A DNA stretch of 43,852 nt from positions 1-43,852 of the IMG/VR virus record IMGVR_UViG_2563366881_000002; one strand, written 5' to 3'. Source of the DNA: a virus (Duplodnaviria; Heunggongvirae; Uroviricota; Caudoviricetes). Positions within the stretch are counted from its first letter, which is position 1; each line of letters begins with the position of its first letter. A program made the position numbers and the translations under genes. The notes below the pieces were generated by a model. The model was not told where the DNA came from. It saw only the letters and a list, made by a program, of their open reading frames with translations, and did no database searches. Positions 6,583-9,529 of this stretch are shown one piece after another.

Positions 6583-7344
6583 CTAAAGCCGGTTGTATTT
6601 AATTGATTCGTGTATCAATGCTTTGCCCATAACATAAAGTTGATCTTGGGACTTCTCATCAATGTACCATTTCTCATAGGCTGGATTATCCGAAAGAACG
6701 GCGAGTTTGTTGCCTTGCATTTGTAGACGTTTAACGTGGAACGTCTTACCATAAACGAAAGAGTAAACACCATCAGTTTGGAAGTTGCGAACAGAAATGT
6801 CGACAAACAGTCGATCTCCGGAAACTAGAGTAGGGGACATGCTGTCGCCATTTACAGTCATAACTTTAATATCATCTTGAGAACGATTACCGAAAAGAGA
6901 ACGGGCATGCTCTGTTGTGAACTCAATGGCGTAGAGCACATCAACATAGTCTGAAAGCATATAGGTTCCAGGTCCTGCGCTAACGCTAAGATCCAAAACT
7001 TCTATCCTGTATACATCGGGTTTTGTTGGATTGGGGATGCTTGCCATTTCCTTACATCCTTCTCTCTCGCCAACACCATATTCTAAATATGAAGCTGATA
7101 CCCCCAGAGCCAATGCAAGTTTATTCATGACAGAGGCACGAGGCTTCGCAGCGCCGATTGTGTATCGCCGCGCCATTTCATATGTAACGCCCACAAGACT
7201 TTTGAGTTGGGTGACAGAAATTCCCTTGTTTGTCATTAGCTCGTTTAGTCTCTTGGCGAAATCTGGATACTTCTGTTCTTCTACCATAGGTAGAAGGTTA
7301 CTCGCATCACATACGCTAGTCATTTCTATTTTAAGTAGTTGCAT
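6583..7344 (-). CDS. cI: CI-like prophage repressor (N-terminal HTH_XRE, C-terminal S24 LexA-like peptidase domain)
   Basis: HTH (..ISVTQLKSLVGVTYEMARRY..), S24 catalytic Ser in ..NGDSMSPT.. and Lys in ..HVKRLQ..; divergent from cro-like gene. True start may be internal (ATG at 7323 or 7287); no SD at any candidate, so possibly leaderless. Confidence 0.85.
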   Translation of the reverse strand: MQLLKIEMTSVCDASNLLPMVEEQKYPDFAKRLNELMTNKGISVTQLKSLVGVTYEMARRYTIGAAKPRASVMNKLALALGVSASYLEYGVGEREGCKEMASIPNPTKPDVYRIEVLDLSVSAGPGTYMLSDYVDVLYAIEFTTEHARSLFGNRSQDDIKVMTVNGDSMSPTLVSGDRLFVDISVRNFQTDGVYSFVYGKTFHVKRLQMQGNKLAVLSDNPAYEKWYIDEKSQDQLYVMGKALIHESIKYNRL

Positions 7345-7393: not shown

Positions 7394-7657
7394 ATGTCAT
7401 CTCAAAACTACACAGAGAAAGCAGTAAAAGCTGCGGGAAAATCTTTATCTGAAGTAGCCCGTCACTTTGGTTTTAAGTCCACTCAATCCGTCGCTAATTG
7501 GGTAATTAACAATCAAGTCCCGTCAGAACGGGTTTTACAACTTTGTGAGTTGGGAAACTGGTCCGTGACCCCTCATGAACTGCGTCCTGATATTTACCCC
7601 AATCCAAATGATGGATTACCTGAGTGCTATTCAAAAGTTAGCGGTTCAGCTGCGTAA
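7394..7657 (+). CDS. Cro-like / YdaS-family HTH regulator
   Basis: 87-aa ORF with SD GAGGAG; divergent from repressor; HTH-like segment ..LSEVARHFGFKSTQSVANWV.. Confidence 0.7.
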   Translation: MSSQNYTEKAVKAAGKSLSEVARHFGFKSTQSVANWVINNQVPSERVLQLCELGNWSVTPHELRPDIYPNPNDGLPECYSKVSGSAA

Positions 7658-7685: not shown

Positions 7686-8243
7686 GTGGGTAAGCATCAC
7701 TGGAAAATAGAAAAACAGCCTGAGTGGTACGTGAAAGCTGTCAGAAAAACTATCGCAGCGTTGCCGGGGGGGTACGCTGAAGCTGCTGACTGGCTGGACG
7801 TAACAGAGAACGCATTATTTAACCGCCTTCGTGCCGATGGCGATCAGATTTTCCCGCTGGGATGGGCAATGGTTTTACAGCGTGCTGGTGGCACTCACTT
7901 CATTGCTGATGCTGTGGCGCAGTCTGCAAATGGCGTATTTGTGTCTCTTCCTGACGTCGAGGATGTGGACAACGCCGATATTAACCAGCGTCTGCTGGAA
8001 GTCATTGAACAGATCGGCAGTTATTCAAAACAGATTCGTTCAGCAATCGAAGACGGTGTAGTGGAACCGCATGAGAAGACAGCAATTAACGACGAGCTGT
8101 ACCTCTCAATTTCGAAGCTGCAGGAGCATGCAGCACTGGTCTACAAAATCTTTTGTGTTTCAGAAAGTAATGACGCCCGCGAGTGTGCAGCTCCGGGCGT
8201 CGTGGCGTCGATTGCTTCTGGTTGTGGAGAAACTAACGCATGA
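7686..8243 (+). CDS. YdaT-like regulatory protein (CII-position)
   Basis: GTG start with SD GAGGAG 7 nt upstream, directly after cro-like gene; 185 aa. Family assignment from recall of ydaS/ydaT pairs in lambdoid prophages. Confidence 0.5.
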
Positions 8244-8578
8244 ACAGTTTAACAACACACTACCGTCGCTCGCAACTGATTGCGCTTCCTGTACCGGGTG
8301 GAAAAGCGAAGGTGGAATATTGCTATGCAGTGAATGTACCAGGTGACAGGGAAATTGTAACCCACAGCTTTGCTGAGTGGGCTGTGGGTGATTTCAACCG
8401 GCAGAAGGAGACAGTCCTTTGCGACAAGTTAACCGCTGGTTCAAAGATCACTACGGAGTGCCCGTCAGAGTCATTCGTTGGGAACCGGAAACACAACGTG
8501 TTATCTACCTCCGCGAAGGCTATGAGCATGAGTGCTTCAGCCCGCTCGAACAGTTTCGTCGTAAATTCAGGGAAATAG
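8240..8578 (+). CDS. hypothetical protein, possibly frameshifted (see findings)
   Basis: ATG overlaps YdaT-like stop (ATGA coupling); N-terminal ~60 aa look protein-like, the C-terminal part is low-complexity while the +2 frame (8419-8598) encodes a clean 59-aa peptide. Confidence 0.35.
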
Positions 8579-8587
8579 AGGTCGGTC

Positions 8588-9529
8588 ATGAGCACTAAAT
8601 TAACCGGCTATGTATGGGATGGTTGCGCTGCATCAGGCATGAAATTATCCAGCGTGGCAATTATGGCCCGCCTGGCTGATTTCAGTAATGACGAAGGTGT
8701 GTGCTGGCCATCAATTGAAACCATTGCCCGCCAGATTGGCGCGGGGATGAGTACCGTCAGAACGGCTATCGCACGGCTGGAAGCAGAAGGCTGGTTAACG
8801 CGTAGGGCGCGTCGCCAGGGTAACCGCAATGCGTCGAATGTTTATCAGCTTAACGTTGCGAAGCTTCAGGCAGCGGCATTTTCTCAACTGTCAGATTCTG
8901 ACCCGTCAAAATCTGACGCATCAAAATCTGACCCGTCAAAATTTGATGCGTCGAAATCTGGCAAAAAAGCGGGTTTTCACCCGTCAGAATCTGGTGGGGA
9001 TCCGTCAGTAAAATCAAAACATGATCCGTCAGATAAAAAAACTTCTCGTCCGGACGCTTCGCAACCGGACACGCAGACGGCTGAACAGGATTTTTTAACT
9101 CGCCATCCTGATGCGGTTGTATTCAGCCCTAAAAAGCGCCAGTGGGGGACGCAGGATGATTTGACCTGCGCACAGTGGCTCTGGAAAAAAATCATCGCCC
9201 TGTACGAGCATGCCGCCGAATGTGACGGCGAGGTGGTTCGTCCCAAAGAACCGAACTGGACAGCATGGGCAAACGAAATTCGCCTGATGTGTGTGCAGGA
9301 TGGTCGTACTCATAAACAAATCTGCGAGATGTACAGCCGCGTCAGTCGCGATCCGTTCTGGTGCCGTAACGTGCTCAGCCCGTCGAAGCTGCGGGAAAAA
9401 TGGGATGAGCTTTCCCTGCGCTTATCGCCGTCCGTCAGCACGTACACCGAAAAACGCGAAGACCCGTACTTCAAAGCCAGTTACGACAACGTGGACTACA
9501 GCCAGATCCCGGCAGGATTCAGGGGGTGA
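8588..9529 (+). CDS. replication initiation protein (lambda O-like; N-terminal HTH, internal iteron origin)
   Basis: N-terminal winged-helix (..SIETIARQIGAGMSTVRTAIARLEAEGWL..); tandem 15-bp repeats inside the gene encode an SDxSK linker, as in lambda O/ori. Confidence 0.7.
   Translation: MSTKLTGYVWDGCAASGMKLSSVAIMARLADFSNDEGVCWPSIETIARQIGAGMSTVRTAIARLEAEGWLTRRARRQGNRNASNVYQLNVAKLQAAAFSQLSDSDPSKSDASKSDPSKFDASKSGKKAGFHPSESGGDPSVKSKHDPSDKKTSRPDASQPDTQTAEQDFLTRHPDAVVFSPKKRQWGTQDDLTCAQWLWKKIIALYEHAAECDGEVVRPKEPNWTAWANEIRLMCVQDGRTHKQICEMYSRVSRDPFWCRNVLSPSKLREKWDELSLRLSPSVSTYTEKREDPYFKASYDNVDYSQIPAGFRG
8893..9038. repeat. iterons (candidate origin of replication) inside initiator gene
   Basis: At least five tandem ~15-bp units ACCCGTCAAAATCTG / ACGCATCAAAATCTG / ... 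plus degenerate copies and flanking A-tracts. Confidence 0.6.

Follow-up and report, generated by a model that had tools for sequence, protein, structure and literature searches.

A 43,852-nucleotide (nt) stretch of caudoviral DNA (IMG/VR record IMGVR_UViG_2563366881_000002, positions 1 to 43,852; hereafter the window) carries two overlapping open reading frames (ORFs) just upstream of the replication initiator gene of an Escherichia coli lambdoid prophage of the e14/SfII type. ORF A (8240-8578, 112 amino acids (aa), ATG start) is ymfM, and ORF B (8419-8598, 59 aa, TTG start) is a gene of the DUF4222 family; both lie on the forward strand. They very probably represent a conserved pair of overlapping genes in an early-right operon, in which cro, ymfL, ORF A, DUF4222 and the initiator follow the oppositely oriented cI, and not the outcome of a frameshift. 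As part of this reading, the comparison of related sequences makes it likely that selection acts on frame A up to position 8418 and on frame B from 8419 onwards, frame A being only kept free of stop codons in the overlap. Overlapping phage genes and translational coupling are known kinds of arrangement. The architecture described here, in which the 3' half of a named E. coli gene coincides with a second gene in a different frame and is selected for openness only, was not found in the searchable literature.

The two reading frames and the frame under selection

The preliminary description of this segment had pointed to two protein-like frames upstream of the initiator, the second of them a 59-aa ORF with a TTG start and the Shine-Dalgarno (SD) sequence AAGGAG. 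These features were confirmed and go beyond what chance would give. ORF B matched the Pfam family DUF4222 (PF13973, gathering cut-off 27 bits) with 67.3 bits and an expectation value (E) of 8.6e-19, its residues 2-53 aligning with model positions 3-52/53. It also corresponds to phrog_1343, had no NCBIfam match and is annotated exactly by the NCBI Prokaryotic Genome Annotation Pipeline (PGAP; WP_001250269.1). The SD sequence (8405-8410, forward strand) is located within the coding sequence of ORF A, 8 nt 5' of the TTG, and does not vary among the 95 unique close homologues described below; frame B is limited upstream by a TGA at 8389-8391. The third frame over the same stretch contains 10 stops.

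DUF4222 exists as a standalone protein: at least 120 homologues were found among the matches listed, mostly of 59-70 aa (range 43-102), and across the Enterobacteriaceae they begin at the start point of ORF B with the motif M(R/A)E(V/L)(N/D)R. The start codon was found at the same position in 10 of 10 divergent lineages (ATG in five, GTG in four, TTG in one), three codons before a conserved (V/L/I)(N/D)R motif and preceded in each of these lineages by a GGAG-type motif. More distant members of the family were situated directly 5' of an O-like initiator in four of five loci; in the fifth (L265) no downstream gene was identified. This neighbourhood suggests that DUF4222 is part of the replication module, in which it may be an accessory protein. 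The AlphaFold2 model of ORF B was a confident small beta-barrel (predicted local distance difference test (pLDDT) 83), and an SH3/KOW-like fold is predicted. Foldseek searches with this model against PDB and BFVD retrieved only generic small beta-barrels (Spt5 KOW, E 0.02; viral DUF1653, E about 4e-3), with no significant structural neighbour, and no functional inference was drawn. One DUF4222 gene, in L242 (IMGVR_UViG_3300001784_000053, 1201-1305), has a premature stop that leaves 34 aa; the overlapping upstream frame is open to its usual stop.

ORF A is the ortholog of ymfM from the K-12 prophage e14 (b1148, 'cell division inhibitor YmfM'). The two differ by 5 nt in 400, share 108 of 112 residues and have the same flanking genes, namely a ymfK-like cI, a ymfT-like cro, ymfL and an oweE/ymfN-like initiator. 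No Pfam or NCBIfam match was obtained for ORF A; the whole protein matches phrog_1170 (112 aa), and residues 1-61 match phrog_20047, a 63-aa family. The preliminary description had found this ORF protein-like for about 60 codons and low-complexity thereafter, in agreement with a conserved core of residues 1-61 (8240-8422, forward strand), to which purifying selection on the ymfM frame is confined, and a read-through tail of residues 62-112 plus the TAG (8423-8578, forward strand) in the +1 frame of DUF4222. The tail is open, its residues are unconstrained, and it is rich in serine, threonine and alanine (11 Ser in 51 residues). In the AlphaFold2 model, residues 10-66 reached a pLDDT of 65-78 (moderate confidence) with a beta-beta-beta-alpha-alpha topology; residues 68-112 stayed below 50 and are predicted to be disordered. 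Foldseek found no match for this model (best E 1.5). An exhaustive HMMER search related core residues 19-50 to repeats of large surface proteins of the DUF7507 or Listeria-Bacteroides-repeat type, for example P0230 with four copies of 'LPVGGGDVTYCYAVDNTGD' (E 4e-7). This may be a motif-level similarity of beta-hairpins, not necessarily homology.

The polymorphism among close relatives was used to locate the selected frame. The first two IMG/VR scans returned near-identical E. coli sequences only and served this analysis, not the deep comparison; they yielded 158 close homologues, of which 95 were unique, and every variant was classified by frame. Between 8240 and 8418, 19 variants were synonymous in frame A and 7 non-synonymous, and all common alleles were synonymous. 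This also held for the linker at 8392-8418, where four of four variants were synonymous in frame A and one of them makes a TAA in frame B. From 8419 to 8578 the proportions reversed, with 15 synonymous and 5 non-synonymous variants in frame B against 2 and 18 in frame A. The B protein was identical in 147 of 159 sequences and occurred in 7 variants; the A protein occurred in 34, which differed mostly past residue 61, the common ones exclusively so. B-synonymous variants are as dense in the overlap (0.29 per codon) as synonymous variants are in the A core (0.32) and in the initiator gene (0.21), indicating that the A tail imposes no detectable constraint on residues. The peptide in the alternative frame is the conserved one, and the C-terminus of the 8240 frame is open, not conserved, the reverse of the outcome that the preliminary description had named as a refutation.

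A programmed -1 frameshift near 8392-8420, one of the options raised in the preliminary description, would fuse the A core to DUF4222 into a protein of about 119 aa. DUF4222 indeed lies in the -1 frame of A, the SD-like AAGGAG is close by, and in-frame fusion proteins occur in databases. These fusions are rare, however, with four representatives in a database of 5.8 billion proteins (P0030, P0052, P0059 and P0065), and have four different breakpoints, suggesting scattered indels. P0065 (119 aa, 14 member sequences) has one extra G in the run of G residues that corresponds to window 8386-8390; the fusions are probably sequencing errors or rare mutants, though this one has several members. There is no slippery heptamer of the type X XXY YYZ at 8390-8423, and the junction sequence differs in every lineage, in contrast to the DUF4222 start and its SD sequence, which are conserved in all of them. 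The linker evolves as frame A. Frame B is interrupted before the start: by the TGA at 8389 in the window, by a TAA at 8395-8397 in four unique sequences with an 8395 C>T variant and, directly ahead of the start, by stops 1 and 5 codons upstream in lineages L173 and L176. A slip of the P-site codon on T-TTC at 8392-8395 was considered as the frameshift site and rejected, as natural variants have the TAA at 8395-8397 in frame B. A programmed frameshift is therefore highly improbable.

The other option, that a frameshift mutation or an assembly error broke one ancestral gene, derives from the raw appearance of two protein-like frames placed end to end, and it is almost certainly wrong. Alignment of the 95 unique homologues, which covered the proposed indel site near 8390-8420, revealed no indel anywhere in 8240-8598. 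The segment 8100-8700 is 100% identical in the strains APEC O18, IHE3034 and PMV-1, the identical sequence is present in at least 30 complete genomes among the matches listed, and among 5426 complete E. coli genomes, 2685, or about half, contain related DNA (80-100% identical). The layout is moreover found in other genera and at protein identities as low as about 45%, and the two parts recombine as separate modules. The last suggestion, two small genes, held in that the genes are separate; the upstream one, however, does not end first but reads through the second out of frame, apparently under selection.

The open ymfM frame across DUF4222 in divergent lineages

A profile scan of genome contigs with the YmfM alignment gave 6 loci only. 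The diversity came from contigs encoding divergent YmfM homologues, obtained as DNA from Phytobacter and metagenomic Enterobacteriaceae, and from a further IMG/VR scan. The divergent loci share the order cI, cro, CP76, A and initiator, with DUF4222 in frame A+2, and the two-frame layout persists at 43-63% identity of the homologues (112-117 aa) and across genera. Conservation of these proteins is confined to residues 1-62: core identities ranged from 61 to 79% among the divergent YmfM-type lineages, tail identities from 12 to 53% between lineages. At least three divergent classes of A core, all starting with MNS(L/V), continue across DUF4222, each in the same frame. Identities of the two parts contrast strongly, with 98% in the core and 29% in DUF4222 between L173 and L176 as opposed to 20% and 83% between the window and L182. 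The A core and DUF4222 therefore recombine as separate modules, and their frame relation is kept.

It is the core that forms the functional unit of A, since A occurs without DUF4222 and as standalone proteins. In L169 (Entomohabitans) and L170 (Atlantibacter) DUF4222 is missing, and A comprises 75-78 aa and ends on the initiator start. Standalone core forms of 53-78 aa were found in these two loci, in L264 and in P0235-P0248, and proteins of 53-68 aa are common in more distant relatives.

The probability of finding the +1 frame of DUF4222 free of stops over its 52-55 codons was computed for each lineage from its DUF4222 protein and the local codon usage, and amounted to 0.05-0.13. All 10 divergent lineages had an open A frame, and so had a second DUF4222 clade (78 of 78 unique sequences), the Enterobacter/Klebsiella-type phages retrieved by an IMG/VR scan seeded with divergent DUF4222; in this clade the other frame stops after 5-11 nt. 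Altogether the frame was open in all of about 90 unique sequences from about 8 lineages. Synonymous third positions are 40-55% identical between the major lineages, so that about eight of the latter are near independent, which gives a joint probability near 1e-9. As the lineages share descent, this figure estimates significance in the manner of an upper bound.

Codon choice within DUF4222 gave a second line of evidence. Codons at risk are those for Val, Leu or Ile before a codon starting with A or G. At these sites GTT and GTC as well as CTT and CTC interchange, and the stop-making GTG, GTA, CTG and NTA were never seen. Stop-making synonyms numbered 0 of 250 and 0 of 115 (0 of 365), compared to 1596 of 3024 (53%) and 354 of 3257 (11%) in genes flanking the pair at these loci. 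As a full-length, high-scoring member of its family located directly 5' of an O-like initiator, ORF B resembles other DUF4222 genes, from which it differs in being covered by the upstream frame save for its last 20 nt. The members in Serratia BZS1, Klebsiella KpnBHU6, SaltyDalty and LMessi, which have no YmfM-type upstream gene, are not covered, and all four contain 1-3 stops in the corresponding frame. Openness is thus a property of this arrangement and not intrinsic to the DUF4222 coding sequence. By these comparisons of codon usage, the read-through of DUF4222 by A appears to be maintained by strong selection against stops.

These observations bear on the view that the two genes are real and the open tail is an unselected accident of shared ancestry and codon bias. 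The chance per lineage is not tiny, the lineages do share ancestry, and in the Yersinia phage YeP1, where A ends earlier, DUF4222 still has an open +1 frame. Against this, synonymous sites are near saturation and yet no stop-making synonym was found, the allowed synonyms interchange freely, and stops are present in each of the four controls that lie outside this context. Different lineages furthermore form the A stop at one and the same place, with a rare ATA or TTA codon. An accidental origin is accordingly very unlikely.

A different explanation for the open frame would be that the full 112-aa YmfM is functional and that its tail has a role at the level of composition, for instance as a disordered linker rich in serine and threonine or as a degron of an unstable division inhibitor. 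The selection for an open A frame would fit, as would the tail being always rich in Ser, Thr and Ala and predicted as disordered, the continuation of the frame into real domains in phage mEp460 and the origin of the published phenotype from the full ORF. The composition, however, arises automatically when DUF4222 is read in the +1 frame, and B-synonymous sites, which are second codon positions of A, are as variable as ordinary synonymous sites. Natural A proteins of 53-78 aa also do without the tail. We regard a functional full-length YmfM as improbable, more so than a pair of genes in which the A frame is conserved for openness only.

The junction with the initiator gene

Upstream of the pair, a cI-like repressor (6583-7344, reverse strand; identified by Pfam and annotation) precedes a cro/YdaS-like gene (7394-7657, forward strand; likewise by Pfam and annotation) and ymfL (7686-8243, forward strand). 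The preliminary description had placed the start of the 8240 ORF on the stop of a YdaT-like gene. The overlap itself was confirmed, with the TGA of ymfL and the ATG of ORF A joined as gcATGA, whereas the upstream gene is not YdaT but a CII-like regulator of the Phage_CP76 family (PF06892, E 1.2e-13), named 'protein YmfL' by RefSeq in the 100%-identical APEC O18 locus. The O-like replication initiator (8588-9529, forward strand) contains a HTH_36 domain (Pfam, E 4e-11) and is called 'DNA replication protein O' or 'primosomal protein' in phage records. The preliminary description had also taken the 59-aa ORF to be coupled to the initiator gene, and its end does overlap the initiator start: the TAA of ORF B (8596-8598) ends 8 nt beyond the ATG at 8588, in an 11-nt overlap (ATGAGCACTAA). 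The TAG of ORF A is placed within the SD region of the initiator (ATAGAGG), 9 nt 5' of its ATG.

Two sequence features of the flanking genes may be mentioned here. The 3' end of ymfL has a 6-bp in-frame indel polymorphism at 8209-8214, absent in 55 of the 95 unique close homologues and the only common indel in this set. The initiator gene contains 4.3 tandem copies of a 15-bp unit (TCTGACCCGTCAAAA) at 8897-8960, which encode a repeated 'SKSDPSK' and look like origin iterons inside an initiator gene, by analogy with lambda O and ori.

The end points at the initiator recur in other lineages, and for A this termination at the initiator start is the constant feature. Relative to the initiator ATG, the A stop was located between -13 and +10 nt in 10 of the 12 lineages, including the two without DUF4222; in the other two, L168 and L176, the script did not locate the initiator ATG. 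Both ORFs end within about 13 nt of this ATG (within about 30 nt for the 70-aa form of DUF4222), the exceptions being YeP1 and mEp460. In most lineages the A stop arises from a rare ATA or TTA codon inside DUF4222, in the contexts GAA-ATA-GAG in window-type lineages, GAT-TTA-GCG in L176 and GAG-TTA-AAG in the second clade. It lies 9-10 nt 5' of the initiator ATG, in the SD region, in the window-type lineages and apparently also in the second clade. The roles are swapped in L178 and L179, where B ends on an ATGA and A 8 nt later, and an ATGA overlap joins A to the initiator in L170. A stop close to the next start or within its SD sequence is the geometry of a coupled junction, and it was found for the A stop as well as for the B stop, which overlaps the ATG. 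We infer from these positions that both ORFs are placed for translational coupling to the initiator.

Translation of the operon might then proceed as follows. A would start on the ymfL stop (ATGA), and the core of about 61 aa would be made. Ribosomes on A would go on for 51 codons in the +1 frame of DUF4222 to the TAG inside the ribosome-binding region of the initiator. B would be translated independently from its own SD sequence and the TTG at 8419, ending 8 nt past the initiator ATG. The read-through would serve to let ribosomes coming from ymfL and A cross the embedded gene and reach the start of the initiator, and the tail would be a by-product with no sequence-specific role.

Several points weigh against this interpretation, in addition to the shared descent that tempers the joint probability of open frames. 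It is the geometry of the junctions alone that suggests a purpose for the read-through, and coupling through A seems redundant, given that translation of DUF4222 by itself should bring ribosomes to the initiator start. Ribosome profiling or proteomics of e14 was not found in the searchable literature. A conserved hairpin masking the SD sequence at the DUF4222 start was dropped from consideration because the RNA fold of 8375-8470 was not significant (z = -1.3). Read-through is moreover not obligatory. In YeP1 (L264, MK733259.1) a standalone 53-aa A-type gene (1010-1171) ends before DUF4222 (1201-1365); the +1 frame over DUF4222 is nonetheless open there and runs into the initiator gene. In mEp460 (L262, NC_019716.1) an A-type ORF (1352-2503) reads through an intact GTG-started DUF4222 gene (1501-1680) and continues in frame into Phage_ASH (aa 117-213) and Phage_pRha (aa 223-308). 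It is annotated as one 383-aa 'transcriptional regulator/antirepressor' and can be read as a real fusion protein or as Ash/Rha with an internal start; SfV (orf37), cdtI and Stx2c phages belong to the same case. That the frame runs into Ash and Rha is a hint that the read-through product can matter as a protein.

Related arrangements are known from other systems. The lambda genes Rz and Rz1 are an example of a gene embedded out of frame in another one, each being translated from its own start and both frames being functional with conserved residues. The locus described here resembles them in that a lambdoid phage carries one gene in another frame of a second gene. It differs in that only one frame is conserved in the overlap, the other being merely open, and in that the inner gene extends past the stop of the outer one. 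Translational coupling by overlap of stop and start (ATGA, or termination in the next SD sequence) is found in the trp operon and many phage operons. The ATGA of ymfL and A, the A stop in the SD region of the initiator and the B stop 8 nt past its ATG are comparable, whereas here a tail of 51 codons with arbitrary sequence would have to extend the putative coupling over the whole of an embedded gene. Frameshifting of the dnaX type or in phage tail chaperones (G/GT) shares with our locus the second frame at -1 and an SD-like element near the junction. The locus deviates from these by lacking a slippery site and by its unconserved junction, the stops in the -1 frame next to it and the conserved start of the downstream ORF.

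Division inhibition, annotation and significance

The phenotype ascribed to ymfM was obtained with DNA that contains both genes. Expression of the K-12 ymfM ORF from pBAD24 led to filaments without Z-rings, and on these grounds ymfM was identified as sfiC (Ansari et al., bioRxiv 10.1101/2020.11.19.390815). Like the K-12 annotation, that study treated the 339-nt ORF as one ordinary gene, whereas in the reading presented here its 3' half is DUF4222 out of frame. By its coordinates, the cloned insert also contained the SD sequence, the TTG and 53 of the 59 DUF4222 codons, which include all of the domain matched by Pfam. Both genes are missing from the delta-ymfM allele, and the clones of an earlier screen carried both. 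The SOS-associated block of Z-ring formation is thus attributable to either the ymfM product or DUF4222. A search of the literature on DUF4222, ymfM ribosome profiling and sfiC found no paper addressing the two frames.

In our judgement the A core is the most likely source of the filamentation described as SfiC activity, with DUF4222 as the weaker candidate. The core is favoured because it was translated from the ribosome-binding site of the vector in the clone, because it evolves fast like other phage division inhibitors and because DUF4222 is tied to replication genes. A bolder proposal, which we consider somewhat doubtful, would be that ymfM was mis-assigned as sfiC and that the Z-ring block is caused by DUF4222 or needs it. 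It would separately regard the 51-codon tail as a 'translational bridge', an arbitrary peptide kept free of stops for the sole purpose of letting ribosomes pass the embedded gene and arrive at the initiator start.

The overlap has also led to conflicting annotations. Genomes annotated by PGAP contain DUF4222 and leave 8244-8418, the YmfM core, empty; K-12 and some phage records contain ymfM and no DUF4222. Two standard annotations (K-12/EcoCyc-style and PGAP) therefore contradict each other for a module that is present in about half of the complete E. coli genomes. The identity of SfiC is a 35-year-old question, and functional work on ymfM is limited to one study, whose clone and deletion both span the DUF4222 coding sequence. 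The locus represents a clean natural out-of-frame overlap in which one frame appears to be conserved for its residues and the other for openness only, and it may be useful for testing ideas on translational coupling and on the origin of overlapping genes.

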